Shown piece by piece: positions 5,100 through 20,906 of a stretch of DNA of 64,000 nucleotides (positions are counted from its first letter, which is position 1; each line of letters begins with the position of its first letter). Location of the stretch: assembly GCA_045653805.1 (NCBI GenBank), contig JAZOMF010000079.1, forward strand, positions 5,327 through 69,326. Direction: 5' to 3'. The DNA comes from Eubacteriales bacterium (GTDB lineage Bacteria > Bacillota > Clostridia > Oscillospirales > CAG-272). Position numbers and translations under genes: made by a program. A model generated the notes under the pieces. The model was not told where the DNA came from and made no database searches. It saw nothing but the letters and a program-made list of their open reading frames with translations.

Positions 5100-5132
5100 A
5101 TTAAAACAAACGTAAACCAAAAGGAGTTAGTA

Positions 5133-6359
5133 ATGGATCTATCCCAAAGAAAAAAAGGTACAACGCCGTTGATGTATATTGTTTTATTTTTGGTTTTTCT
5201 TGCATCAATGAACGTTATTAGTAGATATTATGTTTTCATGTTTGTAGCTTTGGGATTGTTCTTCCTGAAACCCCGAAGAAAGCTATATTTTGACATGGTG
5301 CCTACATCACTTCTGTTCGTGCTGGGTATTTCATGGGTGCTGATTTCTCCCGATTCCACCATCTCAATATTTCGAGTCGTGAAGCCCTTTACATATTTGT
5401 TGTGCTATATTATGGGATGCGCAATGATAAGAGATGATACAGGGTATTCGTCGGACAACACGCCCTATAATCTGTTTTATAAAACGGTGCTGGCAGTAGC
5501 CTTAGGTGCTTTTGCTCACTATATTGCAAATTGGATCTCCAACGCAGGCACAATGAACAGAAACACCGTGGATATTTGGACGGGAGAGGTTATGGCTGCA
5601 ACAGGACAGGCATCCCTTGCTTGTATTCCGCTTGCTTTGGCGATTGCATGCATTTTCTGCAAAAATAATACGTTTATAAAAATTGCATCAATAGTAACCG
5701 TTGTTTTGGTTTTGATGTATAATCTGGTGCTTTCGGGAAGAACGCTGCTGCTTATGTTTTTGGCGATCATCGCCATTGCGCTTGGGCATAGATTGATCAT
5801 GCAGAAGAAGGGAAGCTTAAAGGTTCTTGTTATATTTATCGTTATTGTCTTGCTGCTGTTGGCTCTCTATCAAACGAATGCCTTTGGAATAAAATCATAT
5901 GTTGAGGAGTCGCCTCTATTTGATCGTTTCTTTGCAGAAGACAGCTCTTTGGAGCTTGATGAAGACAGTAGAATGGATAAAAAGCTGTATTATTTGAATA
6001 ATTTTGCAGACCATCTATTTGGCGGAGCTAATATGCGAAAAGTGAGAGGATATGCACACGATCTTTATTTGGACACCTATGATGAAGCGGGAATTTTCGC
6101 TTTTATTGCAGTAGTAGCATATATCTTAATGACTGTATGGCGTTTGATACAGTGTGTTAAAGATAAAAGTCTGCCCTTTGCATTCCGCCAAATCGTTTTG
6201 TGTGTTTACGTTGCTATGTATATCGAATTTATGATAGAGCCTATTCTCCAGGGAATGCCTTGGTTATTTGCTGCATTCTGCCTCATAGACGGATACGTTT
6301 GCGGTATTTTAAGTCACCATAAAACTGTTAAAACAAATCAAATGCAGGAGAAAGTATGA
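5133..6359 (+). CDS. Wzy-type polysaccharide polymerase / O-antigen ligase family membrane protein
   Basis: It is polytopic (about 10 or more hydrophobic segments) with one larger hydrophilic loop (VEESPLFDRFFAEDSSLELDEDSRMDKK). It lies between glycosyltransferase genes in a locus that also encodes Wzx. Confidence 0.65.
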   Translation: MDLSQRKKGTTPLMYIVLFLVFLASMNVISRYYVFMFVALGLFFLKPRRKLYFDMVPTSLLFVLGISWVLISPDSTISIFRVVKPFTYLLCYIMGCAMIRDDTGYSSDNTPYNLFYKTVLAVALGAFAHYIANWISNAGTMNRNTVDIWTGEVMAATGQASLACIPLALAIACIFCKNNTFIKIASIVTVVLVLMYNLVLSGRTLLLMFLAIIAIALGHRLIMQKKGSLKVLVIFIVIVLLLLALYQTNAFGIKSYVEESPLFDRFFAEDSSLELDEDSRMDKKLYYLNNFADHLFGGANMRKVRGYAHDLYLDTYDEAGIFAFIAVVAYILMTVWRLIQCVKDKSLPFAFRQIVLCVYVAMYIEFMIEPILQGMPWLFAAFCLIDGYVCGILSHHKTVKTNQMQEKV

Positions 6360-7573
6360 GAATTGCTGAGATAAATATGCTCCACAAGGGGAGCACAGGA
6401 AATATAATGCTTCAGATAGCTTGCGTTGCCCGTGAAAAGGGGAACGAGGTTAAAACCTATAGCCCTATATGCTTTTCAAGAGGAAACAATGCGACTTTTC
6501 CCGCTATTGATGAACACACATACTGGGGTAGCAAAATGGAATCGTGTTTCCATTATTATGTGGGTGCTCTTTTGGGAAAAAACGGTATGTTTTCTCGCCG
6601 AGGTACAAAGCAGATAATTGACGATCTGGACAAATTCAAGCCTGATATTATCCACCTGCATAATCTCCACGCGTTTTGCATCAATCTCCCCATGCTTTTT
6701 GAGTATATCAAGAAGAATAATATCAAGGTCATCTGGACACTCCACGATTGTTGGACGTTTACGGGACACTGTCCGTATTTTGATATTGTTAAGTGTGACA
6801 AGTGGAAAACAGGATGCCATCACTGTCCTCAGCCGAGAATATATCCCAAGATGTACATTGATACCTCGAAAAGGATGTACGAATTGAAGCAAAAATGGTT
6901 CTGCGGTGTTGAGGATATGACTATAGTAACCCCTTCGCAATGGTTGGCAGATCTTGTTAAGCAGTCCTTTTTGAAAGATTATCCCGTAAAGGTAATTAAT
7001 AACGGTATCGATCTATCAATTTTTAAGCCTACGGAGAGCGATTTCGGAGAAAAACACGGTTTGAAAGATAAAAAGATCGTTTTGGGTGTTGCTTTCGGCT
7101 GGGGATATCGCAAGGGTCTTGACGTTTTTATTGAGCTTGCGAAAAGACTTAGCGACGATTACAGGATAGTACTTGTGGGAACTGATTCAACTGTGGATGC
7201 AAGTCTTCCCGAGAATATTATTTCGATACACCGAACTGATAATCAGACCGAGCTTGCAAAAATATATACCGCCGCGGATGTGTTTGTTATTCCCACAAGA
7301 GAAGAGAACTATCCTACAGTAAATATGGAGTCTATCGCTTGCGGAACGCCTGTTTTGACCTTCAGAACCGGTGGAAGCCCCGAAATCATCGACGAAAGCT
7401 GCGGAAGTGTAGTTGACGTTGACGATGTTGACGCTATGGGAAGAGAAATCATTCGTATCTGCGAGCATAAGCCCTACACCGCGGCGGCTTGCCTTGAGAG
7501 AGCGAAGTCATTTAATATGTATGATAGATTTGAAGAATACGTAAAGCTTTACGAAGAGGTACAAAATAAATGA
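6356..7573 (+). CDS. Glycosyltransferase family 4
   Basis: It has the motif PTREENYPTVNMESIACGTPVLTFRTGGSPEII. Its start overlaps the upstream stop codon, which suggests translational coupling. Confidence 0.75.
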   Translation: MRIAEINMLHKGSTGNIMLQIACVAREKGNEVKTYSPICFSRGNNATFPAIDEHTYWGSKMESCFHYYVGALLGKNGMFSRRGTKQIIDDLDKFKPDIIHLHNLHAFCINLPMLFEYIKKNNIKVIWTLHDCWTFTGHCPYFDIVKCDKWKTGCHHCPQPRIYPKMYIDTSKRMYELKQKWFCGVEDMTIVTPSQWLADLVKQSFLKDYPVKVINNGIDLSIFKPTESDFGEKHGLKDKKIVLGVAFGWGYRKGLDVFIELAKRLSDDYRIVLVGTDSTVDASLPENIISIHRTDNQTELAKIYTAADVFVIPTREENYPTVNMESIACGTPVLTFRTGGSPEIIDESCGSVVDVDDVDAMGREIIRICEHKPYTAAACLERAKSFNMYDRFEEYVKLYEEVQNK

Positions 7574-8727
7574 AAATAGCTTTTGTGTCTAATTTCTATA
7601 ATCATCACCAAAAGCCCTTAGCTGATGCTCTGTATTCTATGATAGGTGAAGGATATCACTTTATAGAGACTGCGCCGATCAGTACTGAAAGATTAAATAT
7701 GGGCTGGGGTGGAGATCAAAGACCATCTTACATATTGCAAAGCTATATTGATGATGCATCAAAGGAAAAATGTCAGCAGATAATTGACGAGGCTGACGTG
7801 GTGATCTTCGGTAGTGCTCCGTATTCAATGATCCTGCCTCGTTTGCAAAAAGGAAATCTTACCTTTATGTATTGCGAAAGACTATACAAAACGGGAGTTC
7901 CGTATCTTAAATTGCCGGTACATATATTAAAAGCATTTAAGAATTATACGAGATATAAGAATTTTTACGTTCTTTGTGCCAGCGCTTATACTGCAGCGGA
8001 CTTTTCTAAAAGACTTGCGTTTATTGGAAAGACCTATAAGTGGGGATATTTCCCTGCGGTTAAGAAATATGAAAATATAGATAAGCTCATTGAAGAAAAA
8101 AATCCACGCTCTATTTTGTGGACTGCAAGATTTATTGATTGGAAGCACCCCGAAATACCCGTGGCGGTAGCGAAGCGCCTGCAGGCTGACGGCTACGAAT
8201 TTGAGCTTAATATGATAGGAAACGGTGAGCTTGAAGAATATACGAAAGAGCTGATAGAGCGTGAGGGCGTTGCCGATTGCGTTAAACTGCTTGGCTCGAT
8301 GAAGCCTGAGCAGGTTCGAGAGCGTATGGAGAAGAGCGAGATATTCCTCTTTACTTCTGATAGAAATGAGGGCTGGGGCGCGGTGCTCAATGAGAGCATG
8401 AATTCCGGATGCGCCGTGGTCGCCAACAGCGCCATAGGTTCGGTTCCATTCCTTATAAATGACGGTGAAAACGGTTATATGTATAAGGACGGCGACGTGG
8501 ACGATCTATATAATAAGGTAAAGAGCTTGCTTGACAATGCAGACGAGCGCAAGAGTATGGCTAAGAATGCATATAAAACCATGGCGGAAGAGTGGAATGC
8601 CGAAAATGCGGCAGAGAAGCTTGTTGCCCTATGTGAAAAAATGCTCGCCGGTGAATATAAGCCCTTCCCCTATGAGAGCGGAGTTTGCAGTAAGGCGGAG
8701 AGACTTAAAGATAATTGGTACAAATAA
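7570..8727 (+). CDS. Glycosyltransferase family 4
   Basis: It has the motif SDRNEGWGAVLNESMNSGCAVVANSAIGSVPFLINDGENGYMY and an ATGA start/stop overlap with the upstream gene. Confidence 0.7.
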   Translation: MKIAFVSNFYNHHQKPLADALYSMIGEGYHFIETAPISTERLNMGWGGDQRPSYILQSYIDDASKEKCQQIIDEADVVIFGSAPYSMILPRLQKGNLTFMYCERLYKTGVPYLKLPVHILKAFKNYTRYKNFYVLCASAYTAADFSKRLAFIGKTYKWGYFPAVKKYENIDKLIEEKNPRSILWTARFIDWKHPEIPVAVAKRLQADGYEFELNMIGNGELEEYTKELIEREGVADCVKLLGSMKPEQVRERMEKSEIFLFTSDRNEGWGAVLNESMNSGCAVVANSAIGSVPFLINDGENGYMYKDGDVDDLYNKVKSLLDNADERKSMAKNAYKTMAEEWNAENAAEKLVALCEKMLAGEYKPFPYESGVCSKAERLKDNWYK

Positions 8728-8746
8728 TTAACTTGAAAGGTTTTTT

Positions 8747-10174
8747 ATGGATAAATCTACAAAAAAACTGTTAAGCGGCTCGGTGGTATATTTTGTCGGT
8801 AGTGCATTGACCCAGTTAATAAGCTTACTGCTTATGCGCTTTGTTACTGGAAATATATCTCCTGAAGAATATGGATTTTTTAATTTAGTAACAACTGTAT
8901 CGAATCTTGCAATACCATTCGTTACACTACAGATGGCAGATGCTGTTTTTAAGTTTGTTCTAAAATCGGAAACCGAAAATGAGAAAAAAGAATATCTTTC
9001 CATTTGTTTTGTTGTTTCTGCTATCAGCGTTGCTTTGATATACGCAATAGTATGCGGCGTATCATTTTTCTATAAAATACCGCATACTTTTTTGGTTGCA
9101 ACGTATGTTGCTTCCCATGCTTTGATAGGTATATATCATAAAATCACTCGTTGCCTTGGTAAAAACAAGATTTATGTAACGGTAAATTTGATAAAAACCG
9201 CAATTTTTTTGATACTTGAAATCATACTCCTATCTGTTATGGATATGGGAATTGAAGCGTTACTGTTGGCGCACATTATATCTACGATTTTCGGAATAGT
9301 TTGTACGGAGATATGTGTGCGTGCGCTTAAATATTTCAGCTTTAAATCAATTTGCTGGTCAAAATTTAAGAACATGGTTTACTTTTCGATACCTCTTATT
9401 CCTAACGCGGTCTTTTGGTGGTTGACTAATTCTGTTAACTCAGTTATCGTATCCGCAAGATTAGGAATGGATGTTAATGGAATTTATTCGGTATCTAATA
9501 AATTTACCTCTGTTCTTGTTCTCGTTACAAGTGTGCTAAATATGTCTTGGCAGGATACAGCTATTGCCGATTACGGTCAAGATGGCTTTAGTCGTTTCGT
9601 TACCAAGACCTTTAATACATACATAAAATTGATCTTTTCTGCAATAGCAGTTGCGTGTCCTTTGATTGCTTTGGTAATACCTTATATGATAGCTCCTGTA
9701 TATTATGATGCAATTCAATATACCCCATTTTTGATGCTTGCTTCCGGAGTTGCGGCTATGTCTGGTTTTGCAGCACAGATATTTGTTGGAAAGGGAAAAA
9801 CCAAGAGCTTGCTGATAACTTCGTTGTTTGGAATGATTTCTAATATTGCTGTAATCATAGCTCTCGTTGATAAAATTGGACTTTGGGCGGCTGTTTTTGG
9901 TTCTCTTGCGGCGGACTTAGTTATTTTTGTCATAAGAATATTCTTGGCAAGAAAGGATTTTGCTAAGGGTATAAATTTTGTAAGCTTTTCAATAATATTC
10001 GTTATTACGGCAATAAGTATTGTTTTGTATTTTAATGCTGATCCAGTATTGAATGCAGTATGGTATGGAGTTTCCGCCATCATAGCGGTGATCTTGAATT
10101 GGTCGTTTATACGTGATATGATCACTTTGACGTTCGGTAAATTTTTAAATAAATTTATTAAGGGTGAGCAATGA
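8747..10174 (+). CDS. wzx: Wzx-type flippase (MOP/polysaccharide biosynthesis protein family)
   Basis: It is a 475-aa protein with about 12-14 hydrophobic segments. The N-terminus (KKLLSGSVVYFVGSALTQLISLLLMRFVT) is typical of oligosaccharide flippases. Confidence 0.75.
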   Translation: MDKSTKKLLSGSVVYFVGSALTQLISLLLMRFVTGNISPEEYGFFNLVTTVSNLAIPFVTLQMADAVFKFVLKSETENEKKEYLSICFVVSAISVALIYAIVCGVSFFYKIPHTFLVATYVASHALIGIYHKITRCLGKNKIYVTVNLIKTAIFLILEIILLSVMDMGIEALLLAHIISTIFGIVCTEICVRALKYFSFKSICWSKFKNMVYFSIPLIPNAVFWWLTNSVNSVIVSARLGMDVNGIYSVSNKFTSVLVLVTSVLNMSWQDTAIADYGQDGFSRFVTKTFNTYIKLIFSAIAVACPLIALVIPYMIAPVYYDAIQYTPFLMLASGVAAMSGFAAQIFVGKGKTKSLLITSLFGMISNIAVIIALVDKIGLWAAVFGSLAADLVIFVIRIFLARKDFAKGINFVSFSIIFVITAISIVLYFNADPVLNAVWYGVSAIIAVILNWSFIRDMITLTFGKFLNKFIKGEQ

Positions 10175-11247
10175 AAAACTTATTTATAATGCATACTCAA
10201 TATAATCTTATATTGTCAGCGGCGGTTATGTCGAGGTTCACACCCGCGGAGAACACATTAATTTTATATTCGGAGTTTGACTTGAAAGATGAAATGCGTG
10301 AATCGCTTTCGCGGGTTTTTTACAGAGTAATAGTAATCAGAGATAAATTTGCTCCGGTAATGAAACCGTTGGAAGAAACAAGATTTATTCGCAAATGCAT
10401 GAAAAAAGTTAGGTCTATTAGAAACGAGCGCTTTGATAACGTGTATATGTCGCAGGAGCGTATCTTTGATATGATAGTTTGCGCCAGAGCCAAAAAGATC
10501 AATCCCAATCTAAAATGCTACAATATTGAAGAAGATGCTTATTATTCGATAAACGAAAAATATAATGCAGATGATTACCTTCATATTGAAAGTAAGCGAG
10601 CAAAGCGCAGGAAGTTTTTGTTTGCTTTGTTGCTTGCCGGCTATCCTTATAATTATAAGGACGTTCATTACTGCTACGGCATGAGCAGTGAGTATGACGG
10701 TGCGAATATTTTGTACCCTCATCTTGCAAGACGAGAATTAAGGGGAAAAGATCTGATTGAGATAACAAAAGACGAGCTTGTTCGCGGAATAGACGCGATA
10801 TATTCCAAAATTAATATCGAATATCCCAAAAGCGACAAATACACTTTGTTTTTCTTTGATCTAATGAATCGATATAAGAATCCGGAAAGAGTCAAAGAAA
10901 TTGTCAGAGAGATAATACGAATTTCTCGTGAAGAGGGAAGAACGGTTCTTTTAAAATACCATCCCAGAGAAACCGATAAATTTGAGGATGTTGAAGGTGT
11001 AGTTGAATTACCGCATATTATTCCTGCCGAAAAGGTACTGTATGACCTTCTGGGAACCGATACGGTAATTATGGGAAATGCGACTACCTCATGTATTGTT
11101 GCCGCAAAGCTTGGATATGATGTAATATCGATTAGTAAGCTTGAATTTCCTACTAACGAAAAGATACATAATACGATGAAAAAAATGGGCATCTTTTGTG
11201 TCGATAACACCCAAAATATAAATAGTATAATTAGAAAGGATTTTTAA
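10171..11247 (+). CDS. Hypothetical GT-B-like protein; possible bacterial sialyltransferase / polysialyltransferase-like transferase
   Basis: The N-terminus MKNLFIMHTQYNLILSAAVM, an acidic NIEEDAYY segment and a KYHPRE (HP) motif resemble the D/E-D/E-G and HP motifs of bacterial sialyltransferases. It is translationally coupled to the adjacent cytidylyltransferase. The assignment rests on motifs only. Confidence 0.4.
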   Translation: MKNLFIMHTQYNLILSAAVMSRFTPAENTLILYSEFDLKDEMRESLSRVFYRVIVIRDKFAPVMKPLEETRFIRKCMKKVRSIRNERFDNVYMSQERIFDMIVCARAKKINPNLKCYNIEEDAYYSINEKYNADDYLHIESKRAKRRKFLFALLLAGYPYNYKDVHYCYGMSSEYDGANILYPHLARRELRGKDLIEITKDELVRGIDAIYSKINIEYPKSDKYTLFFFDLMNRYKNPERVKEIVREIIRISREEGRTVLLKYHPRETDKFEDVEGVVELPHIIPAEKVLYDLLGTDTVIMGNATTSCIVAAKLGYDVISISKLEFPTNEKIHNTMKKMGIFCVDNTQNINSIIRKDF

Positions 11248-11248
11248 A

Positions 11249-11944
11249 ATGAGTTTTACAGCCGTTATTCCAGTAAGAGAGGGAAGCAGAAGATTAAAAA
11301 ACAAGAATATCGCTCCCTTTGCAGGTACTAATCTTCTTATTAATAAGATTAACCAGTTAAAGCAGGTTCACGAGATTGAAAATATTGTAGTTTCATCAGA
11401 TTCCGAGTTGATGCTTCAAATGGCAGAATCCCAGGGAGTTATGACACACAAAAGAGCTATTGAGTTTTGTGATGAAAAGACTAAAACCTTTGGTGAGGTT
11501 GTTGCTCATGTGTGTGAAAATGTTCCAGGGGACCATGTCATCTGGGCAACCTGTACCGCTCCCTTGGTGTTCCCGAAGCACTATAAGGAGGCTATAGGAT
11601 TATACAACGATGCTTTGGCGAATGGATATGATTCTCTTGTGTCTATGGAGCAGTTTAAGCGTTATTTGTGGGACGATAACGGACCTGTAAACTATGAGCT
11701 TGGTATCAAGCACGTACCTTCACAGCAGTTGAAGCCCTTGTATTTTTGTACTGACGGCATTCTTATTGCTCCCAGAGAGAAGATGATTGAATGGAAGTAT
11801 TTCCACGGAACCAATCCTTATAGATATATTTTGGACAAGAGAACAAGTGTTGACATTGATGATGGGCTTGATCTTGCTTGTGCAAGAGCATGGCTTGATA
11901 TGGATGAAACTGTTTCTCAGATTGATCCGTATATGACAAAGTAA
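11249..11944 (+). CDS. Cytidylyltransferase of the acylneuraminate cytidylyltransferase (CMP-NeuAc/CMP-Kdo synthetase-like) family
   Basis: The N-terminus AVIPVREGSRRLKNKNI is the signature of this family. The length (231 aa) fits. Confidence 0.75.
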   Translation: MSFTAVIPVREGSRRLKNKNIAPFAGTNLLINKINQLKQVHEIENIVVSSDSELMLQMAESQGVMTHKRAIEFCDEKTKTFGEVVAHVCENVPGDHVIWATCTAPLVFPKHYKEAIGLYNDALANGYDSLVSMEQFKRYLWDDNGPVNYELGIKHVPSQQLKPLYFCTDGILIAPREKMIEWKYFHGTNPYRYILDKRTSVDIDDGLDLACARAWLDMDETVSQIDPYMTK

Positions 11945-11963
11945 TTAATTCAAGGAACCCAAA

Positions 11964-12143
11964 ATGAAAGCCCTAATTTTAAACTCCGGTCTTGGTCGCA
12001 GAATGGGAGTGCTTACAAGCGAGCATCCCAAGTGTATGACCGAGATCTCGGCAAAGGATACTATACTTTCCCGTCAGCTGAAGCTTATCGCTGAGGCTAT
12101 GATACTTAAGGATGTATTCCCAAAGAAAAACAGGAGTAAATAA
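11964..12143 (+). pseudogene. Truncated duplicate of the 5' end of the nucleotidyltransferase-PepM fusion gene (59 codons, then stop)
   Basis: By hand alignment, nt 11964-12079 match 13723-13838 with about 5 mismatches in 116 nt. The encoded MKALILNSGLGRRMGVLTSEHPKCMTEISAKDTILSRQL is identical to the start of the 669-aa protein. The sequence then diverges and stops at 12141-12143. Confidence 0.8.
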
Positions 12144-12979
12144 TGAAACTGACAGAAAATCAATTAAAAGAAACAAAAGTTATTGACGCAACTATTGATA
12201 TAGATGGTTTAAAAAAAATTGAATTGCAAATCTTAAAGGATGTACATGTCTTTTGTGAGTCAAATGAAATACGCTATTTCCTATGGGGTGGGACACTGTT
12301 AGGGGCAATTCGGCATGAAGGATTTATCCCTTGGGATGATGACGTAGATATAGCAATGTTCCGCGAAGATTATGAAAAATTTTTGAAGGATTTTAATGTT
12401 GATCAATACGGCATCACCGAATGCTATGGAGATAAGGGACATCCTTTCTGGCACGCAAAGGTCTATCGAAAAGATACAGAGAAAATTGAGAGCGTGTACT
12501 ATAGAAAGGGCTATTCTGTTGGAGTAGATATAGATGTGTTTGTGTTGGATAGCTATAACAATTATGAAGATGTGCTCAAAACTGTGGAATGGCGCCAAAA
12601 ACAGATCAAATGGTATTTTAGAAGTCTTTACTCATCCAAGTCCCGATCCTTAAAGGCAAAGTTTACGGGTTTTTTAACTCGCAATATTCTGTTTTGTAAT
12701 GCGAATAAGACTTCGCGCGCTATAAATAACAAAGCGACAGAGTTTGGACGAGAAGGCGACGGGCTTATGCTGTATGCCGATTCTAATTTGAAACGACCAC
12801 TCAAATTGGAACGAAGCTGGTTTGAAAGCAGAGTTCTGACAAAGTTTGAGGATACGGCATTTTATGTTCCCGGTAACTATGATGCACTGCTCACAGCTTG
12901 CTATGGAGATTATATGACGCCTCCTCCTAAAGAAAAGCAGATTACTCATCACAGTTTTGTTGCTTATTATAAAAACTAA
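12143..12979 (+). CDS. licD: LicD family phosphotransferase (transfers a phospho- or phosphono-substituent from a CDP/CMP-activated donor to a glycan)
   Basis: It has the LicD signature region YFLWGGTLLGAIRHEGFIPWDDDVDIAM, and GDYMTPPP near the C-terminus. Confidence 0.85.
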   Translation: MKLTENQLKETKVIDATIDIDGLKKIELQILKDVHVFCESNEIRYFLWGGTLLGAIRHEGFIPWDDDVDIAMFREDYEKFLKDFNVDQYGITECYGDKGHPFWHAKVYRKDTEKIESVYYRKGYSVGVDIDVFVLDSYNNYEDVLKTVEWRQKQIKWYFRSLYSSKSRSLKAKFTGFLTRNILFCNANKTSRAINNKATEFGREGDGLMLYADSNLKRPLKLERSWFESRVLTKFEDTAFYVPGNYDALLTACYGDYMTPPPKEKQITHHSFVAYYKN

Positions 12980-12994
12980 AGGGAGAAATATATT

Positions 12995-13699
12995 ATGGTT
13001 ACTGCAATTGTAATTTCCGGTGGTAGCGGAACCAGAACAGGACAGGCAATACCAAAGCAATATTTGACTGTTAATGATATTCCTGTTATTGCATATACCT
13101 TGACGAATTTGCAAAAGGTTGAAGAAATTGACAAAATTATTGTGGTGGTTGCTAAAGGATGGGAGAGCTTTGTGTATGCCTATGCGGTTCAGTTCGGCAT
13201 TACCAAGTGTAAGGAGGTAGTTTTTGGAGGGGTAACACGCAATGAGTCCATATATAACGGCTTGTGTGCGCTCAAAGATGATGGAGAAACAGAAAAAGTG
13301 TGTCTTGTAGACGCCAATCGCCCAATGATACCTCAAGAGGTCTTTAGTGGGGCTATTAGTCTCATTGATCAATGTGACGTGGTTTTAACTGCGGATCCTT
13401 GCTATGATAGTATGTTTTATTCGCCCGACGGTGAATGTGCGACACAGAATGTTGAACGTAAAAATCTGTTTAAGGGGCAAACACCTGAGTGCGCAAGGCT
13501 TGACACTATGTTGGAACTATATGCGGATGAATCTTCTCGTTTGGACAACTCACTAAGTACAAGTGCTCTTGCTATAAAAAAAGGTAAACGTGTACTTCTG
13601 GCTAAAGGACATATTAAATGCTTTAAAATAACTACTGTTGATGACTTTACACTATTTAAAGCATTTCTGTCTGCGGAGTCTTCTAAAAATCTTATATAA
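12995..13699 (+). CDS. IspD/TarI-family cytidylyltransferase
   Basis: The N-terminus AIVISGGSGTRTGQAIPKQYL and the 234-aa length are typical of the 2-C-methyl-D-erythritol-4-P / ribitol-5-P cytidylyltransferase family. Confidence 0.75.
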   Translation: MVTAIVISGGSGTRTGQAIPKQYLTVNDIPVIAYTLTNLQKVEEIDKIIVVVAKGWESFVYAYAVQFGITKCKEVVFGGVTRNESIYNGLCALKDDGETEKVCLVDANRPMIPQEVFSGAISLIDQCDVVLTADPCYDSMFYSPDGECATQNVERKNLFKGQTPECARLDTMLELYADESSRLDNSLSTSALAIKKGKRVLLAKGHIKCFKITTVDDFTLFKAFLSAESSKNLI

Positions 13700-13722
13700 A
13701 TAAACACTTCAAAGGAATTAAA

Positions 13723-15732
13723 ATGAAAGCCCTAATTTTGAACTCCGGACTTGGTCGCAGAATGGGAGTGCTTACAAGCGAGCACCCGAAGTGCATGACC
13801 GAGATCTCGGCAAAGGATACTATACTTTCCCGTCAGCTTCGCCTGATCGCAGAGGCGGGAATAAGTGAAGTGGTTATGACCACGGGATATTTTGACGAGG
13901 TGCTGGTAAATTACTGCCACTCGCTGAATCTTCCCCTGCATTACACCTTTGTAAACAATCCCGTTTACGACACAACTAACTACATTTATTCGATATACTG
14001 CGCTCGTGACACTCTTGAGGGCGACGACATCGTGCTTATGCACGGTGATCTGGTGTTTGAGGGCGAGGTTTTCGATAAGGTCATCGCCAGTGAAGTGAGC
14101 TGTATGACCGTCAGCTCGACCCTGCCTCTGCCCGAAAAGGATTTCAAGGCGGTAATAGGCGAGGGAAGAGTGAAGGCTGTTGGCATCGAGTTCTTTACCG
14201 ATGCGCTGGCGGCTCAACCCCTTTACAAGCTTTGCAAAAATGACTGGAAGGTCTGGCTCGACGAGATAGTTGCATTCTGCGAGAGAGATGACCGCAAGTG
14301 TTACGCTGAAAACGCCTTTAACAAGGTGTCGGACAAGTGCCTCATTTATCCCCTTGACGTTGAAAATGCCCTCTGCGGCGAGATCGACACTCCCGAGGAT
14401 CTGGCAGTTGTGGCATCTCGAATTGCCGAGCTTGAAAGCCGTACCGTTTATATGTGCTTTTCTACCGATATGATCCATTCGGGTCACATTTCCATCATCA
14501 AGAAGGCGCAGAAGCTGGGCAGATTGATCATCGGCGTGCTTTCGGACGAGGCGGTTGCCTCCTACAAGCGATTTCCTCTTATGCCTTATGCCGAAAGGAA
14601 ATCCTTGGTTGAAAATATCAACGGCGTGTCTGAGGTTATCGAGCAAAAGGAGCTTTCCTACGCCGCAAATATCCGCGTGCTGAAGCCCGACTTTGTGGTT
14701 CACGGCGATGATTGGCGCGAGGGCTTCCAGAAGCCTATCCGCGACGAGGTCGTTGAGCTTTTGGCAAGCTATGGCGGAAAGCTGGTTGAGTATCCCTATT
14801 CCAAGGCCGAAACATATCTTGAAATGGAAAAGCTCTCCCGAGCGCAGCTTTCTATGCCCGACATGCGCCGTGGCAGACTTAAAAAGCTTATCTCTATGAA
14901 GGGTCTCGTTACCGCCATGGAGGCTCATAGCGGTATCACAGGACTTATCGTTGAGCAGACCAAGGTGCTTAAAGAGGGCAAGACCTATCAGTTTGATGCT
15001 ATGTGGGTATCCAGCCTTTGCGACTCTACCGCCAAGGGCAAGCCTGACATCGAGCTTGTTGATATGACCTCTCGTTTCCGCACCATAGACGACATAATGG
15101 AGGTTACCACCAAGCCCATCATCTTCGACGGCGACACAGGCGGACTTACCGAGCATTTCGTTTATACCGTCAAGAGCCTTGAGCGAATGGGCGTTTCCAT
15201 GGTAATCATCGAGGACAAGACCGGACTTAAAAAGAACTCGCTCTTCGGCACCGAGGTCGAGCAGACCCAGGATAGCATTGAGAACTTCTGCGAGAAGATC
15301 AGGGCGGGTAAGAAGGCGCAGAAGACCAAGGAATTTATGATCTGTGCGCGTATTGAGTCGCTCATTCTTGAAAGAGGAATGGAGGACGCGCTGGAAAGAG
15401 CGTTTGCCTTCTCTGATGCAGGTGCTGATGCTATTATGATCCACAGCCGCAAGAAGGATCCTGCGGAGATATTTGAGTTTGTGGAGAAGTTCCGTCAAAA
15501 GAATAAGGCAACTCCCATTGTGGTAGTTCCTACCTCCTTTAATACCGTCACCGAGCAGGAGTTTAAGCAGATAGGCGTCAACGTGGTTATCTACGCAAAT
15601 CAGTTAACTCGTAGCGGTTTCCCCGCAATGCAAAAGACCGCCCTCACCATCCTTGAAAACCACCGTGCCAAGGAAGCGGATGATATGTGTATGTCCATCA
15701 AAGAGATAATTACACTTATTCCGGAGGAATAA
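13723..15732 (+). CDS. pepM: Three-domain fusion: LicC-like nucleotidyltransferase, HxGH cytidylyltransferase and phosphoenolpyruvate mutase (PepM)
   Basis: aa 1-235 carry the NTP-transferase motif LNSGLGRRMG. aa 240-370 form a cytidylyltransferase-like domain with MIHSGHI (HxGH). aa 375-669 are PepM with DGDTGG and the diagnostic EDK-x5-NS motif (IEDKTGLKKNS). Confidence 0.9.
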   Translation: MKALILNSGLGRRMGVLTSEHPKCMTEISAKDTILSRQLRLIAEAGISEVVMTTGYFDEVLVNYCHSLNLPLHYTFVNNPVYDTTNYIYSIYCARDTLEGDDIVLMHGDLVFEGEVFDKVIASEVSCMTVSSTLPLPEKDFKAVIGEGRVKAVGIEFFTDALAAQPLYKLCKNDWKVWLDEIVAFCERDDRKCYAENAFNKVSDKCLIYPLDVENALCGEIDTPEDLAVVASRIAELESRTVYMCFSTDMIHSGHISIIKKAQKLGRLIIGVLSDEAVASYKRFPLMPYAERKSLVENINGVSEVIEQKELSYAANIRVLKPDFVVHGDDWREGFQKPIRDEVVELLASYGGKLVEYPYSKAETYLEMEKLSRAQLSMPDMRRGRLKKLISMKGLVTAMEAHSGITGLIVEQTKVLKEGKTYQFDAMWVSSLCDSTAKGKPDIELVDMTSRFRTIDDIMEVTTKPIIFDGDTGGLTEHFVYTVKSLERMGVSMVIIEDKTGLKKNSLFGTEVEQTQDSIENFCEKIRAGKKAQKTKEFMICARIESLILERGMEDALERAFAFSDAGADAIMIHSRKKDPAEIFEFVEKFRQKNKATPIVVVPTSFNTVTEQEFKQIGVNVVIYANQLTRSGFPAMQKTALTILENHRAKEADDMCMSIKEIITLIPEE

Positions 15733-15768
15733 GAGTATCCCCGAAGAATAATTTTTGAGGAATAAAAA

Positions 15769-16878
15769 GTGAAACAAAGAATTATTGAAGGAAGTGCATC
15801 CTACAGGGAGATTGGAGAAGCGCTCCGCTCCCTTGGGGTCACCAAATATATGCTGGTTTATAGCGGATCGGCAAAAAGACTTCCCGTGTGGGAGTATCTT
15901 GCTCATCTTGACATCCCTCGCGTGCTCTTTTCGGACTTTACCCCCAATCCCAAGTATGAGGAGATCGTGGGCGGTGTTGACCTGTTTAGAGCAGAGAATT
16001 GCGACGGGATCCTTGCCGTAGGTGGCGGAAGCGCGATCGACGTGGCAAAATGCATCAAGCTCTACTCAAAAATGAGCAAGGACAAGCTCTATCTTGATCA
16101 AAAATGTACCGACACGGGCATTCCGCTTATAGCTCTGCCCACCACGGCAGGAACCGGAAGCGAGTCTACTCCTTTCTCGGTTATATATTATAAAGGAGAG
16201 AAACAGTCGGTCAAGCACCCGAGCATTTTGCCAGACGTGGCGATTTTGGACGGTGACGTGCTTGAAAATCTGCCGCTTTATCAGAAAAAATGTACCGTTC
16301 TGGATGCCTACTGTCAAGCAATCGAGGCTTGGTGGAGTGTCAATTCGTGCGACGAGAGTATAGCCTGCTCAAAAGCCGCCATCGAGTTGATAAAGGACTA
16401 TATCTTTGAATACGTGGAGCAAAACACCTGCGTGTCGCGTCACAAGATAATGACGGCATCAAACCTTGCGGGTCAGGCGATAGCGTACACCGCTACTACC
16501 GCCCCCCACGCTATGAGCTATAAGCTGACCACCACCTACGGTTATCCCCATGGTCATTCGGTAGGAATCAGCCTGCCGCGAGTGTGGAAATATATGATTG
16601 AAAATTACGAGAGCTGTAATGATAGTCGAGGAGCAGACTACGTTCTTGCCACCTTTGACGAGATAGCAAACGCGCTTGGGTACGCGACCGCAAAAGATGC
16701 GGCAGAGGGCTTTGAAGCAATGCTTTCAAGGCTTGAAATAGGCTATCCTCACGATGAAAACAGGGAAGAGATGGCGAAATATCTTGCCGACTCGGTGAAC
16801 GTGGAGCGACTTGGCAACAACCCCGTAGCTCTTGATAACAAAGAACTTTACGATCTTTATCTGGAGATGTTTATATAA
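15769..16878 (+). CDS. Iron-containing (group III) alcohol dehydrogenase; predicted phosphonoacetaldehyde reductase (GTG start)
   Basis: It has Fe-ADH motifs (AVGGGSAIDVAKC, ALPTTAGTGSE, the histidine-rich PHAMSY...HGHSVG). It lies between pepM and the phosphonopyruvate decarboxylase gene. PhpC, FomC and DhpG belong to this family. Confidence 0.65.
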   Translation: MKQRIIEGSASYREIGEALRSLGVTKYMLVYSGSAKRLPVWEYLAHLDIPRVLFSDFTPNPKYEEIVGGVDLFRAENCDGILAVGGGSAIDVAKCIKLYSKMSKDKLYLDQKCTDTGIPLIALPTTAGTGSESTPFSVIYYKGEKQSVKHPSILPDVAILDGDVLENLPLYQKKCTVLDAYCQAIEAWWSVNSCDESIACSKAAIELIKDYIFEYVEQNTCVSRHKIMTASNLAGQAIAYTATTAPHAMSYKLTTTYGYPHGHSVGISLPRVWKYMIENYESCNDSRGADYVLATFDEIANALGYATAKDAAEGFEAMLSRLEIGYPHDENREEMAKYLADSVNVERLGNNPVALDNKELYDLYLEMFI

Positions 16879-17987
16879 TGAAGCTTGATTTTTTAAAGGA
16901 ATTTGAATTTTTTGCAGGAGTTCCCGATTCACTTCTCAAGCCTCTTTGCAATTACCTTATGGCGACCTACGGCATTTCAAGTAAGCACGTGATTGCCGCT
17001 AATGAGGGTAACGCCGTGGGACTTGCGGCGGGCTACCACTTGGCAACGGGAAAGGTGCCGGTGGTCTATATGCAGAACAGTGGACTGGGAAATATTATTA
17101 ACCCCGTGGCGTCACTTATGAACGATAAGGTTTACGGCATCCCCTGCCTCTTTATCGTAGGCTGGCGAGGTGAGCCGGGCGTTCACGATGAGCCCCAGCA
17201 TATCTATCAAGGCGAGGTTACAGTCCGTCTCCTTGAGGACATGGATATTGCTACCTTTGTAGTAAGCAAGAGCACTACCGCCAAGGAGCTTGAAGAGAAG
17301 ATGACGGAGTTCCGCGCTCTTTGGGCAATCGGAAAGCAGACCGCCTTGGTTATCCGCAAGGGCGCCCTTGAATTTGACGGAAAGGTCAAGTATTCAAACG
17401 AAAACAGCATGGTGCGCGAGGAGATAATCGAGCATATCGCCTCGGCAAGTGAGGGTGACGTAGTAGTATCCACCACTGGCAAAGCCTCGAGAGAGCTTTT
17501 CGAGATTCGAGAGCGAAGAGGTCAGGCACACGGTTCTGATTTCCTAACGGTTGGCTCTATGGGTCATTCCTCGTCGATTGCCCTTGCAATCGCCAATGAA
17601 AAGCCCGACCGCAAGATCTGGATAATCGACGGAGACGGAGCGCTGCTTATGCACATGGGCTCTATGGCGCTTCTTGGAGCCAACGCTCCCAAAAACGTGG
17701 TTCACATCGTTATAAATAATGGAGCACACGAGACGGTTGGCGGACTTCCCACTGTGGCAGAGAAGATCGACCTTATGAAGATAGCAGAAGGATGTGGATA
17801 TCCCTCGTTTGAGAGTGTGGATAGCTTTGATGCGCTGGATAACGCGCTGGATAGAGCAAAGGTATCGGATCAACTCTCGTTTATTGAGGTCAAATGCTCC
17901 ATCGGAGCGAGAGACGACCTCGGCAGACCCACGACCACAGCAAAAGAAAACAAAGAGAACTTTATGAAGTATCTGGAGGATAAATAA
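16878..17987 (+). CDS. aepY: Phosphonopyruvate decarboxylase (TPP-dependent)
   Basis: The N-terminus FFAGVPDSLLKPLCNYL...ANEGNAVGLAAGYHLATGK...MQNSGLGN and the TPP-binding segment IIDGDGALLMHMGS...NN are characteristic of Ppd/AepY. Confidence 0.85.
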   Translation: MKLDFLKEFEFFAGVPDSLLKPLCNYLMATYGISSKHVIAANEGNAVGLAAGYHLATGKVPVVYMQNSGLGNIINPVASLMNDKVYGIPCLFIVGWRGEPGVHDEPQHIYQGEVTVRLLEDMDIATFVVSKSTTAKELEEKMTEFRALWAIGKQTALVIRKGALEFDGKVKYSNENSMVREEIIEHIASASEGDVVVSTTGKASRELFEIRERRGQAHGSDFLTVGSMGHSSSIALAIANEKPDRKIWIIDGDGALLMHMGSMALLGANAPKNVVHIVINNGAHETVGGLPTVAEKIDLMKIAEGCGYPSFESVDSFDALDNALDRAKVSDQLSFIEVKCSIGARDDLGRPTTTAKENKENFMKYLEDK

Positions 17988-17988
17988 A

Positions 17989-19041
17989 ATGGGACTTTTT
18001 ACAGGTAAAACACTTTTGATCACAGGTGGTACAGGCTCTTTCGGTAATGCCGTACTCAACCGTTTTCTTGACACCGATATCGGTGAGATCAGAATTTTCT
18101 CCCGCGACGAAAAGAAGCAGGACGATATGCGTCACTATTTTCAGGTAACAAAGCCCGAGGTAGCAGAGAAGATCAAGTTCTACATTGGTGATGTGCGCGA
18201 CATCGCAAGCGTGCGCAACGCTATGCACGGAGTTGACTACATATTCCACGCGGCGGCATTGAAGCAGGTGCCCTCTTGCGAGTTTTTCCCCATTGAGGCG
18301 GTAAAGACCAACGTGCTTGGTACTGAAAACGTGCTTACTGCGGCAATCGATGCAGGCGTTAAGAACATCGTTTGTCTTTCCACCGACAAGGCGGCTTACC
18401 CCGTAAACGCTATGGGAACAAGTAAGGCGATGATGGAGAAGGTAATCGTGGCGAAGTCCAGAACAGTCAGCCCCGAGAAGACCAAGATCTGCTGCACCCG
18501 TTACGGCAACGTAATGTGCTCTCGCGGCTCTGTAATTCCGCTTTGGATAGACCAGATAAGAGCAGGTAACCCCATAACCGTTACCGACCCCACAATGACC
18601 AGATTTATTATGTCGCTTGACGAGGCGGTGGATCTCGTTCTCTTTGCATTTGAGCATGGTGAGAGCGGTGACATTCTTGTACAGAAAGCGCCTGCTTGTA
18701 CCATCAAGACACAGGCAGAGGCGGTTTGCGAGCTTTTCGGCGGCGACAAAAACGCTATCAAGGTTATCGGTATCCGTCACGGTGAGAAGATGTATGAAAC
18801 TCTCCTTACCAACGAGGAGTGCGCGAATGCTATCGACCTCGGCAACTTCTACCGTGTGCCCTGCGACAAGCGTGGACTTAATTACGATAAGTACTTCAAT
18901 AAGGGCGATACCGAGAGAAATACCCTCACCGAGTTCAATTCTCACAATACCCAGCTTCTTAACGTGGAAGAGACCAAGGCGAAGATCGCTTCTCTCGCGT
19001 ATATTCAGGAAGAGTTGGCGAAATTTGTGGGCAAAAAATGA
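17989..19041 (+). CDS. fnlA: UDP-N-acetylglucosamine 4,6-dehydratase/5-epimerase (FnlA/CapE type)
   Basis: It has KTLLITGGTGSFGNAV, IRIFSRDEKKQ, CLSTDKAAYPVNAMGTSKA and RYGNVMCSRGSVIPLW, the CapE/FnlA pattern. Confidence 0.85.
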   Translation: MGLFTGKTLLITGGTGSFGNAVLNRFLDTDIGEIRIFSRDEKKQDDMRHYFQVTKPEVAEKIKFYIGDVRDIASVRNAMHGVDYIFHAAALKQVPSCEFFPIEAVKTNVLGTENVLTAAIDAGVKNIVCLSTDKAAYPVNAMGTSKAMMEKVIVAKSRTVSPEKTKICCTRYGNVMCSRGSVIPLWIDQIRAGNPITVTDPTMTRFIMSLDEAVDLVLFAFEHGESGDILVQKAPACTIKTQAEAVCELFGGDKNAIKVIGIRHGEKMYETLLTNEECANAIDLGNFYRVPCDKRGLNYDKYFNKGDTERNTLTEFNSHNTQLLNVEETKAKIASLAYIQEELAKFVGKK

Positions 19042-19691
19042 AACGTTTTTTAAAAAAAATAATTAGAAAATACTATCGTTTGTTTAATTATTTGCCTTTC
19101 AATAACAAATACAGATTGAGAGGAAATAAGATCAAAAACTATGGTAAATCTCTCTATAAGTGTAAGTTTTTGTGTGCCGGAAAAGGTAATACTATAATTT
19201 TACACGACGACGGGATGATAAGAAATACCACTTTTTGTATAAAGGGAAACAATAATACCATCGAAATAGGCAAAAACTCCTATATAGTTAACGGAGATTT
19301 GTATATTGAGGATGATGGCAACATTATCAGTATCGGAGATCAGACACGATTGTGTGGAAAGATACATTTAGCATGCACCGAGTCTAAACGTATAAAAATA
19401 GGTAATGACTGCCTTTTTTCGTCGGAAATAGTGTTTAGAACAGGGGATTCGCATTCACTGTTGGATATGGATGGCAATCGTATTAACCCTGCCGCAGACA
19501 TTGTTATTGATGATCATGTATGGATCGGTTACAGGGTGTTGGTGAACAAAGGCGTACATATCGCTTCAAATAATATGGTGGGAACTGGGTCAGTGGTTAC
19601 AAAAAGATTTGATGATAGTAACACAGTGATTGCTGGTGTTCCTGCAAAAGTGATTAAAAATGGTACCGATTGGTGTATTGAAAGAAAATAA
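19038..19691 (+). CDS. Left-handed beta-helix (hexapeptide-repeat) acetyltransferase
   Basis: The C-terminal half has hexapeptide repeats (IGNDCLFSSEIVFRTGDSH ... IDDHVWIGYRVLVNKGVHIASNNMVGTGSVV). It is a markedly AT-rich gene lying between fnlA and fnlB. Confidence 0.65.
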   Translation: MKRFLKKIIRKYYRLFNYLPFNNKYRLRGNKIKNYGKSLYKCKFLCAGKGNTIILHDDGMIRNTTFCIKGNNNTIEIGKNSYIVNGDLYIEDDGNIISIGDQTRLCGKIHLACTESKRIKIGNDCLFSSEIVFRTGDSHSLLDMDGNRINPAADIVIDDHVWIGYRVLVNKGVHIASNNMVGTGSVVTKRFDDSNTVIAGVPAKVIKNGTDWCIERK

Positions 19692-19709
19692 ACGGGTGAG
19701 TACGAATAT

Positions 19710-20906
19710 ATGAAAATACTTATAACCGGAGCTTACGGCTTCGTTGGAAAAAACCTCACCGAGGTATTGAAAAACATTAAAGACGGCAAGGACAGACGCT
19801 TTCCCTCTCTCTCTATCGACGAGCTTTATCTCTACGATATAGACACCGACGAAAGCGTGCTGGAGGAGGCTTGCCGGCAGGCTGACTTCGTTTTCAACCT
19901 TGCAGGCGTCAACCGCCCACAAAACCCCGAGGAGTTTATGCAGGGTAACTTCGGATTTGCCTCAAAGCTTTTGGAAACGCTGAAAAAATACGGCAACAAA
20001 TGCCCCGTGATGATCTCGTCGTCTATTCAGGCTACCTGTATCGGTCGCTATGATAGTGATTACGGCAGAAGCAAAAAGGCAGGCGAGGAGCTGATCTTTG
20101 CCTATGGTGAAGAGAGCGGCGCCAAGGTGCTGGTCTACCGCTTCCCAAATCTCTTCGGTAAGTGGTGCAGACCTAATTATAACAGCGCGGTGGCAACCTT
20201 CTGCAACAATATTGCAAACGACCTGCCCATCACGGTAAATGATCCCTCGGTCTGCCTTGAATTGCTCTATATCGACGATCTTGTGGACGAAATGATCGCC
20301 GCGCTCGAAAAAAGAGAGCATCGTTGCACCTTTGACGGTATCGAAACCGTGCTTTGCGAGGACGGTCGCTATTGCGCTGCTCCCGTGACACATAAGGTCA
20401 CTCTTGGCGAAATAGTTTCGCTTCTTGAATCCTTCCGTGATCAGCCAAAGACTCTCGTTATGCCCGAAATTCCCGAAAATAGCTTTGCAAAGAAGCTTTA
20501 TAGCACCTATTTGTCTTATCTCCCAAAGGAAAAGGTCTCTTTCCCCTTGAAGATGAACGTGGATGCAAGAGGCAGCTTCACCGAACTGCTGAAAACCGAA
20601 AAATGCGGTCAGTTCTCGGTAAATATCTCAAAGCCTGGTATTACCAAGGGTCAGCATTGGCATAACACGAAGTGGGAATTCTTTATAGTTGTAAGCGGCA
20701 AGGGGCTTATTCAGATGCGCAAGATCGGCTCTGACGAGGTGCTGAATTTTGAGGTTTCGGGGGAGAAGATCGAGGCTATACATATGCTCCCCGGTTATAC
20801 ACACAACATAATCAATCTCTCGGACAGCGAGGATCTCGTAACCCTTATGTGGGCAAACGAGCAGTTTGATCCCACAAGCCCCGATACTTTTTTTGAGACA
20901 GTTTAA
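19710..20906 (+). CDS. fnlB: CapF/FnlB-type bifunctional reductase/epimerase (N-terminal SDR plus C-terminal cupin)
   Basis: It has the N-terminal Rossmann motif ILITGAYGFVGKNL and a C-terminal cupin region (GSFTELLKT...GQHWHNTKWEFFIVVSGKG). It sits in fnlA/fnlC context. Confidence 0.8.
   Translation: MKILITGAYGFVGKNLTEVLKNIKDGKDRRFPSLSIDELYLYDIDTDESVLEEACRQADFVFNLAGVNRPQNPEEFMQGNFGFASKLLETLKKYGNKCPVMISSSIQATCIGRYDSDYGRSKKAGEELIFAYGEESGAKVLVYRFPNLFGKWCRPNYNSAVATFCNNIANDLPITVNDPSVCLELLYIDDLVDEMIAALEKREHRCTFDGIETVLCEDGRYCAAPVTHKVTLGEIVSLLESFRDQPKTLVMPEIPENSFAKKLYSTYLSYLPKEKVSFPLKMNVDARGSFTELLKTEKCGQFSVNISKPGITKGQHWHNTKWEFFIVVSGKGLIQMRKIGSDEVLNFEVSGEKIEAIHMLPGYTHNIINLSDSEDLVTLMWANEQFDPTSPDTFFETV

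Follow-up and report, generated by a model that had tools for sequence, protein, structure and literature searches.

Why should a single polypeptide carry two unrelated cytidylyltransferases in front of the first enzyme of a phosphonate pathway? The question is raised by a gene of a Eubacteriales bacterium (Oscillospirales, CAG-272; assembly GCA_045653805.1, contig JAZOMF010000079.1), which lies at positions 13723 to 15732 of the 64,000-nucleotide stretch analysed here and called the window. The 669-residue product joins a PntC/LicC-like nucleotidyltransferase, a Fom1-type cytidylyltransferase and a phosphoenolpyruvate (PEP) mutase. The results make it probable that this enzyme heads a conserved cassette for 2-hydroxyethylphosphonate (HEP), and that HEP activated with cytidine monophosphate (CMP-HEP) most likely decorates a capsular glycan. 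The gene and its parts are:

13723..15732, + strand: tri-domain gene, 669 aa (PntC/LicC-like nucleotidyltransferase, Fom1-type cytidylyltransferase, PEP mutase)
13723..14430, + strand: domain 1, aa 1-236, PntC/LicC-like cytidylyltransferase (PF12804)
14431..14838, + strand: domain 2, aa 237-372, Fom1-type cytidylyltransferase (PF01467)
14839..14877, + strand: linker, aa 373-385, between cytidylyltransferase and PEP mutase, helical in the model
14878..15729, + strand: domain 3, aa 386-669, PEP mutase (PF13714)

The open reading frame (ORF) starts with ATG, follows an AGGA ribosome-binding site by ~8 nt and contains zero internal stops. Three non-overlapping Pfam matches lie above the gathering score: NTP_transf_3 at aa 3-122 (37.8 bits, cut-off 27), CTP_transf_like at aa 249-343 (52.5 bits, cut-off 21) and PEP_mutase at aa 386-643 (190 bits). 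The protein also passes the NCBIfam PEP mutase equivalog TIGR02320, with 410.7 bits against a cut-off of 319.55. The three domains and their boundaries had been proposed in a sequence-only reading of this DNA, and both are correct; the two motifs quoted there, LNSGLGRRMG and MIHSGHI, are found at aa 6-15 and aa 250-256. The motifs of domain 1 are G9-L-G11-R-R13...P22-K23, H107-G-D109, K139-D-F-K142, Y194-A-E196 and E220-I-D222-T-P-E-D226, and those of domain 2 are H252-S-G-H255, S280-Y-K-R283 and H327-G-D-D-W331. Domain 3 contains E497-D-K-T-G-L-K-K-N505-S506, the EDKxxxxxNS signature that separates mutases from their relatives in the isocitrate-lyase family.

Comparison with solved structures places each domain. 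Domain 2 matches the cytidylyltransferase domain of Fom1 (5x3d) with E 1.4e-42 to 3.4e-41 and 64 identities over 123 ungapped positions (52%), and domain 3 matches PEP mutase 1m1b with E 1e-39. The match of domain 1 to LicC (1jyk) has an E value of 4e-7; with a profile of its subfamily, LicC is matched end to end at E 7.7e-18 and PntC of Treponema denticola (6pd1) at E 6e-13. A full-length structure prediction, which the sequence-only reading had proposed, was run with AlphaFold2 and gave a confident tri-domain model (predicted local distance difference test score, pLDDT, 93.2; predicted template modelling score, pTM, 0.81). Both junctions are continuous in the model: helix 224-239 runs into strand 241-246 at the first, and helices 363-376, 379-383 and 385-393 span the second, with a block-mean pLDDT of 86-88 over aa 361-380. 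The PEP mutase part superimposes on 5unc and 1pym with a TM score of 0.89 and a root-mean-square deviation (rmsd) of 2.1 A, as a TIM-barrel fold. Because this domain dominated the full-length Foldseek search, domain 1 was modelled alone (pLDDT 95.1). Its top neighbour in the PDB is T. denticola PntC (6pd2; TM score 0.85, rmsd 2.4 A), followed by inositol-phosphate cytidylyltransferase and LicC.

The tri-domain architecture is common in gut and rumen anaerobes. A search over 5.8 billion proteins, clustered at the 90% identity level, returned at least 120 clusters with this layout, 649-671 aa long (668-671 aa in 117 of them) and 80-96% identical. PF01467 and PF13714 occur in all of these clusters and PF12804 in all but one. 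The members come from independent NCBI, ENA, JGI and Logan assemblies and are annotated as 'phosphoenolpyruvate mutase' in metagenome-assembled genomes (MAGs) of Clostridia, Ruminococcaceae and Oscillospiraceae. The family is tight (~70-95% identical), and at the 50% identity level it is a single representative (P0121, 71% identical). A second scan used the motif of the N-terminal domain on GTDB, with each species represented by a single genome, and matched at least 581 stretches; of the 80 top-ranking loci, which were examined, 69 contain the tri-domain ORF (668-694 aa where complete). Hosts include Oscillospiraceae, Lachnospiraceae, Ruminococcus, Christensenellaceae, [Clostridium] symbiosum ATCC 14940 and Hominiventricola, as well as Prevotella, other Bacteroidales and one Sphaerochaetaceae MAG.

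Each of the three domains evolves under purifying selection. Conservation and the ratio of nonsynonymous to synonymous substitution rates (dN/dS) were taken from a codon alignment of 68 distinct orthologues, a mixed MAFFT pass that included two-domain proteins being too noisy. The median pairwise dN/dS is 0.116 for domain 1, 0.144 for domain 2 and 0.066 for the PEP mutase. Invariant residues of domain 1 are G9, G11, R13, P22, K23, H107, G108, D109, K139-D-F-K142, Y194, E196, E220, D222 and D226. In domain 2, H255, R283, H327, G328 and W331 are invariant, H252 is present in 67 of the 68 and K282 in 65; E497, D498, N505 and S506 of the PEP mutase are invariant. Domain 1 follows the GXG(T/S)RX4-8PK consensus as G9-L-G11-R12-R13-x8-P22-K23, with Arg at the T/S position, which is S, H, R, T or K among the orthologues. 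The sequence-only reading had allowed that the middle domain might be a degenerate linker. Its identity to Fom1, the conservation of HxGH, K/R282-R283 and HGDDW and its low dN/dS show otherwise, and the N-terminal domain is likewise intact.

The genes on either side of the tri-domain gene indicate the pathway in which it may act:

12143..12979, + strand: LicD-family phosphotransferase, candidate HEP transferase (Pfam LicD, 6e-40)
12995..13699, + strand: IspD/TarI-family cytidylyltransferase (Pfam IspD, 3.9e-32; below the ispD and ribitol-5-phosphate cut-offs)
15769..16878, + strand: iron-dependent alcohol dehydrogenase (Fe-ADH), putative phosphonoacetaldehyde reductase yielding HEP (Pfam Fe-ADH and ADH_Fe_C)
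16878..17987, + strand: phosphonopyruvate decarboxylase (TIGR03297, 470.1 bits against a cut-off of 312.5)

The cassette thus runs tri-domain gene, Fe-ADH, decarboxylase. Of the 69 tri-domain loci, 63 have the dehydrogenase as well as a decarboxylase of the thiamine pyrophosphate-dependent/phosphonopyruvate type next to the tri-domain gene. A query for the transaminase of the 2-aminoethylphosphonate (AEP) branch had zero matches in the 64-kb window and in the 69 loci; the same query was positive in locus L161, and an AEP pathway at the window locus was rejected on this ground. Since a decarboxylase and an Fe-ADH are encoded and an AEP transaminase was not detected, the predicted chemistry is that of the HEP branch, from PEP through phosphonopyruvate and phosphonoacetaldehyde to HEP, as defined by Li and Horsman (2022; PMC8942020). 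The PEP mutase domain would convert PEP to phosphonopyruvate, and the separate decarboxylase would convert this to phosphonoacetaldehyde, thereby pulling the unfavourable equilibrium of the first step. The Fe-ADH would then reduce phosphonoacetaldehyde to HEP, and the middle, Fom1-type domain would join HEP and cytidine triphosphate (CTP) to give CMP-HEP. The LicD-family protein, or a TagF-like protein in sister loci, would finally transfer the HEP-phosphonyl group to a sugar hydroxyl of the polysaccharide.

One of the closest known systems is Fom1 of the fosfomycin pathway of Streptomyces wedmorensis. Fom1 has the same order of PF01467 and PEP mutase, the same HxGH and HGDDW motifs and the same adjoining upstream chemistry, a decarboxylase and an Fe-ADH leading to HEP; its cytidylyltransferase domain acts on HEP (Cho et al. 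2017, as cited in PMC6697681). Unlike Fom1, the window protein has an additional N-terminal PntC-like domain, and its cluster lacks tailoring genes of the Fom3, Fom4 and FomD types and sits in a capsule locus. Because of these last two differences, CMP-HEP is presumably a glycan donor rather than a transient antibiotic intermediate. The cassette lies inside a Wzx/Wzy-type capsule polysaccharide locus of this gut bacterium, an Oscillospiraceae-like member of the Clostridia; the locus also encodes an initiating sugar transferase, five GT4 glycosyltransferases, a polymerase-like protein, a flippase, a polysialyltransferase-like protein and a gene set resembling that for synthesis of UDP-L-FucNAc (uridine diphosphate-N-acetyl-L-fucosamine). 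A LicD or TagF-like transferase is the direct neighbour in many tri-domain loci, and in sister loci a TagF-like Glyphos_transf protein replaces LicD immediately upstream of the cassette. To our knowledge, HEP has so far been found on glycans only in two actinomycetes.

The identity of the middle domain leaves the question of the first. Domain 1 is predicted from its residues and fold to be a second, catalytically intact cytidylyltransferase of the PntC/LicC type, and its substrate is most likely also HEP or a close HEP-like neutral alcohol. With PntC (Tde1415 of T. denticola, 6pd1 and 6pd2; Ari1348) it shares the fold, a setting in a phosphonate cluster and the GxGxR...PK motif, in which Arg13 and Lys23 correspond to Arg15 and Lys25; Asp109 aligns with Asp106 of T. 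denticola PntC. The two differ in overall sequence (~19% identity) and in partner, which is an AEP transaminase in PntC and a cytidylyltransferase with PEP mutase here, and the PntC cluster is an AEP cluster whereas the present one is probably a HEP cluster. They also differ in the pocket. In T. denticola PntC, Glu104 and Glu196 contact the amine of AEP. Glu196 is kept as Glu196 in the tri-domain protein, but Glu104 aligns with His107, which is found in 68 of 68 orthologues and also in fusions of the N-terminal domain to Fe-ADH. By comparison, the pocket Glu is present in 120 of 120 PntC-like enzymes from transaminase clusters ('LESD' versus 'MHGD'), as seen in L161 and in 120 Prevotella/Hallella clusters with the context LicD-decarboxylase-transaminase-PntC. 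Because His107 breaks the acidic pair, domain 1 is not a PntC of the AEP type, but it may act like PntC on HEP. A HEP-like substrate is favoured because the pocket changed in step with the change from transaminase (AEP) to dehydrogenase (HEP) clusters. The residue at this position, His or Glu, offers a simple marker by which PntC-like enzymes could be assigned to a HEP or an AEP type.

LicC, the CTP:phosphocholine cytidylyltransferase of Streptococcus pneumoniae (1jyk), offers the same logic, a head group linked to cytidine diphosphate (CDP) or CMP and then passed to a LicD-family transferase. It differs in that LicA and LicB were not found in the window locus, in that the aromatic-box sequence YWDN is YAEN in the tri-domain protein, and in that Asp105 of LicC corresponds to His107, by transitivity through the alignment with T. 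denticola PntC.

The N-terminal subfamily, recognised by the motif TNYIYSIY, occurs in several other layouts: PntC-like with Fe-ADH, PntC-like with cytidylyltransferase and Fe-ADH, PntC-like with cytidylyltransferase and no mutase, and stand-alone proteins of ~240 aa. Loci L005-L007 (8001-9851) encode a 616-aa PntC-like protein fused to Fe-ADH, beside a P-loop kinase, a cytidylyltransferase-mutase gene, methyltransferases and a decarboxylase. L008 (8001-10256) encodes a 751-aa PntC-like, cytidylyltransferase and Fe-ADH fusion together with four LicD genes and a separate cytidylyltransferase-mutase gene. In L020, L034, L048, L055 (match ~10001-11140) and L009, genes of 373-380 aa consist of PntC-like and Fom1-type domains only, and PEP mutase, dehydrogenase and decarboxylase are all absent within 10 kb; LicD adjoins the gene in L034 and lies ~6 kb upstream in L020. 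Some tri-domain loci have an extra stand-alone PntC-like gene, which is of the His type ('MHGD') in L040 (7707-8495) and has Asn at the pocket position ('INGD') in L091 (16220-16939). The latter lies beside an IspD-like gene, paralleling the window, where the ispD-like gene adjoins licD.

In a metagenome scan seeded with two-domain cytidylyltransferase-mutase proteins, 80 loci were sampled. The gene is two-domain in 80 of 80, and a decarboxylase and an Fe-ADH are on the same contig in 55. The Fom1-like two-domain cassette is thus the widespread form, to which lineages from gut and rumen typically have the PntC-like domain as an addition. The proposal that both nucleotidyltransferases are obligatory in HEP clusters, which came from L005-L008, where they are encoded by separate genes in one cluster, was ruled out by the 77 of these 80 loci that are without a PntC-like domain.

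Several explanations of the architecture compete with that of a HEP-activating enzyme. An assembly or annotation artefact that fused separate genes, a possibility raised in the sequence-only reading, has a negligible chance of being correct: it is excluded by the recurrence of an identical layout in 69 species-level genomes and at least 120 protein clusters, and the secondary structure of the model is unbroken over both junctions. Conceivably, too, one nucleotidyltransferase domain has no catalytic activity and acts only as a scaffold, in oligomerisation or as an allosteric sensor of CTP or a CMP-phosphonate. The Arg at position 4 of GXG(T/S)R, which varies across orthologues, is compatible with this idea, and tandem cytidylyltransferases of unequal activity do exist, such as CTP:phosphoethanolamine cytidylyltransferase (ECT; 3elb), which matches in two stretches. 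However, the catalytic residues G9, G11, R13, K23, D109, D222, H252, H255, R283 and those of HGDDW are invariant or nearly so, dN/dS is 0.12-0.14 for both domains, and both are known with the same motifs as stand-alone or otherwise fused enzymes, which makes a dead domain very improbable. Hardly more credible is the proposal of the sequence-only reading that one of the domains pulls the PEP mutase equilibrium by cytidylylating phosphonopyruvate or another early intermediate. The equilibrium is indeed unfavourable, and the physical fusion to the mutase fits such a role, but phosphonopyruvate decarboxylase is the established driving step. Pulling by a nucleotidyltransferase is not needed because a true decarboxylase adjoins the gene, as it does together with the dehydrogenase in almost all tri-domain loci. 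The PntC-like domain is missing from nearly all two-domain loci and is also present without a nearby PEP mutase. The fused cytidylyltransferase of Fom1 acts three steps later, on HEP (PMC6697681).

A more serious alternative, though still an unlikely one, is a division of labour in which the Fom1-type domain makes CMP-HEP and the N-terminal domain activates a second, non-phosphonate head group, such as phosphocholine, phosphoethanolamine, glycerol phosphate or similar. Two CDP or CMP donors would in that case come from a single polypeptide and serve two decorations or a polymer of mixed phosphonate/phosphate type. Two enzymes for the same substrate in one polypeptide would be redundant, and many tri-domain loci contain two or three LicD paralogues. 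In L034 and L035, moreover, the PntC-like domain is next to LicD with no mutase, dehydrogenase or decarboxylase within 10 kb. Such mutase-less loci weigh little, however, because a mutase can sit more than 9 kb from the rest of its phosphonate cluster, as it does in L175. The pocket residue also co-varies with the phosphonate branch, His with Fe-ADH and Glu with transaminase; the N-terminal domain is repeatedly fused straight to the HEP-forming Fe-ADH; the aromatic-box Trp of LicC is Ala in the tri-domain protein; and no choline/ethanolamine kinase (APH-type) homologue was found in the window.

The assignment of both cytidylyltransferases to a HEP cassette that decorates a capsule is itself opposed by several results. 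If both domains use HEP, one of them is a duplication without obvious purpose, and because 77 of the 80 two-domain loci lack the PntC-like domain (a PntC-like neighbour occurs in only 3), it is dispensable for the basic pathway. There are also loci in which the domain, by itself or joined to a Fom1-type one, neighbours LicD and a PEP mutase is absent within 10 kb. Two of the mutase-less loci, L048 and L055, have an APH-family kinase a single gene away, and this proximity hints at a phosphate-ester substrate. The Fe-ADH reaches no NCBIfam equivalog, and its role as phosphonoacetaldehyde reductase is assigned by context only. With single-sequence queries, LicD or a TagF-like Glyphos_transf protein was found near the cassette in only 26 of the 69 tri-domain loci, and no report of HEP on glycans of gut anaerobes or of the carrier organisms was found in the papers that were searched.

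In a further and rather unlikely reading, the two domains are non-redundant, producing CMP-HEP and a second CDP- or CMP-linked alcohol, or two differently activated forms of HEP, and the change of Glu to His marks a new, HEP-specific branch of PntC. If so, these donors would feed LicD- or TagF-type transferases, and the product in gut and rumen anaerobes would be a glycan with two decorations or a capsule polymer, so far undescribed, that contains phosphonate and resembles teichoic acid.

The architecture itself has a precedent. The sequence-only reading took two different nucleotidyltransferase folds on one PEP mutase to exceed the known logic of such fusions. The two folds are real, but the layout is common and already catalogued. 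In the survey of 1485 non-redundant PEP mutases by Rice et al. (2019, Nat Commun; PMC6697681, Fig. 2b), the fusion partner is PF12804 in 33.0%, PF01467 in 23.6% and both in 2.9%; the survey also notes clusters in which one nucleotidyltransferase is part of the mutase polypeptide and a second is encoded at a distance of one or two genes. The window gene adds a member to the catalogued architecture PF12804 + PF01467 + PF13714. That inventory counted the double fusion; its characterisation, HEP context and taxonomic spread are not covered there, and literature searches turned up no characterisation elsewhere. Because the architecture is catalogued and its members are annotated as PEP mutase, the surprise for specialists is modest. 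PEP mutase is a general fusion hub, as a search of representative proteins also recovered cytidylyltransferase-mutase, PF12804-mutase, mutase-PF12804 and mutase-decarboxylase proteins. A further fusion is P0200 (1174 aa), in which cytidylyltransferase, mutase, decarboxylase and AEP transaminase amount to the whole pathway to activated AEP in one polypeptide. P0194 (842 aa) is a cytidylyltransferase-mutase-decarboxylase, and P0176 (625 aa) joins an HD domain to cytidylyltransferase and mutase. The contigs of P0128, P0163, P0225, P0122 and P0126 are 0.8-3.7 kb long, so that little of their neighbourhood is visible.

The remaining features of the locus lie upstream of the cassette:

11249..11944, + strand: CTP_transf_3 (NeuA/PseF/KdsB-like) cytidylyltransferase (PseF model 61.7 bits, below 205.7)
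11964..12143, + strand: truncated 5' duplicate of the tri-domain gene, a 59-aa ORF (sequence match)
11939..12097, no strand: upstream copy of a 159-nt direct repeat (87% identity between copies)
13698..13856, no strand: downstream copy of the 159-nt direct repeat, the 5' end of the intact gene (87% identity)

With the CTP_transf_3 gene, the IspD-like gene at 12995-13699 and the fragment at 11964-12143, the count of nucleotidyltransferase domains given in the sequence-only reading, four and a fragment of a fifth, is right. The CTP_transf_3 gene is part of the capsule locus and outside the phosphonate cassette. It is preceded by a gene for a 358-aa protein (region 10171-11944) whose polysialyltransferase match is weak and below the cut-off, and no nonulosonic-acid or Kdo (3-deoxy-D-manno-octulosonate) synthase was seen among the locus genes scanned (window positions 1-23044).

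The first 45 residues of the 59-aa ORF equal the N-terminus of the tri-domain protein except for Lys in place of Arg at position 40. The direct repeat brackets licD and the ispD-like gene. Among 92 compared sequences, the upstream repeat with its truncated duplicate occurs in this window only, and the upstream copy resembles the allele of L014 more closely (92.7%) than the 5' end of the intact gene resembles that allele (88.4%). The repeat has the look of a scar left by recombination when cassettes were swapped between capsule types, and homologous recombination across it could delete licD and the ispD-like gene. The G+C content is ~0.37-0.41 in the region of the glycosyltransferases, licD and ispD-like gene (4000-14000) versus 0.50 in the tri-domain, dehydrogenase and decarboxylase genes (~14000-20000), a step consistent with a mosaic, horizontally exchanged phosphonate cassette. 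An antisense ORF of 588 aa (13732-15498, - strand) covers nearly all of the tri-domain gene; most likely it is not a gene but a shadow ORF that reflects strong constraint on the coding region opposite.

The order of the cassette genes differs between lineages. The decarboxylase precedes the dehydrogenase in every Bacteroidales/Prevotella locus with both genes visible (L026, L027, L051, L058, L060, L062, L063, L075, L087, L090 and L091) and in almost no others, and the dehydrogenase comes first in almost all loci of Clostridia. Tri-domain proteins of the two groups are ~70-75% identical. The distribution suggests an old horizontal transfer followed by lineage-specific rearrangement of the cassette.

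Finally, phosphonate decoration of cell surfaces is widespread, and its chemistry is barely mapped. The tri-domain protein is a compact, soluble-looking test case for a question left by the 2019 inventory, namely why phosphonate clusters often carry two unrelated cytidylyltransferases. Cultured carriers are at hand in [Clostridium] symbiosum ATCC 14940, Ruminococcus sp. FC2018 and Hominiventricola aquisgranensis. From the cassette, HEP-bearing capsules can be predicted for many of the Clostridia and Prevotella-type bacteria that are prevalent in gut and rumen.

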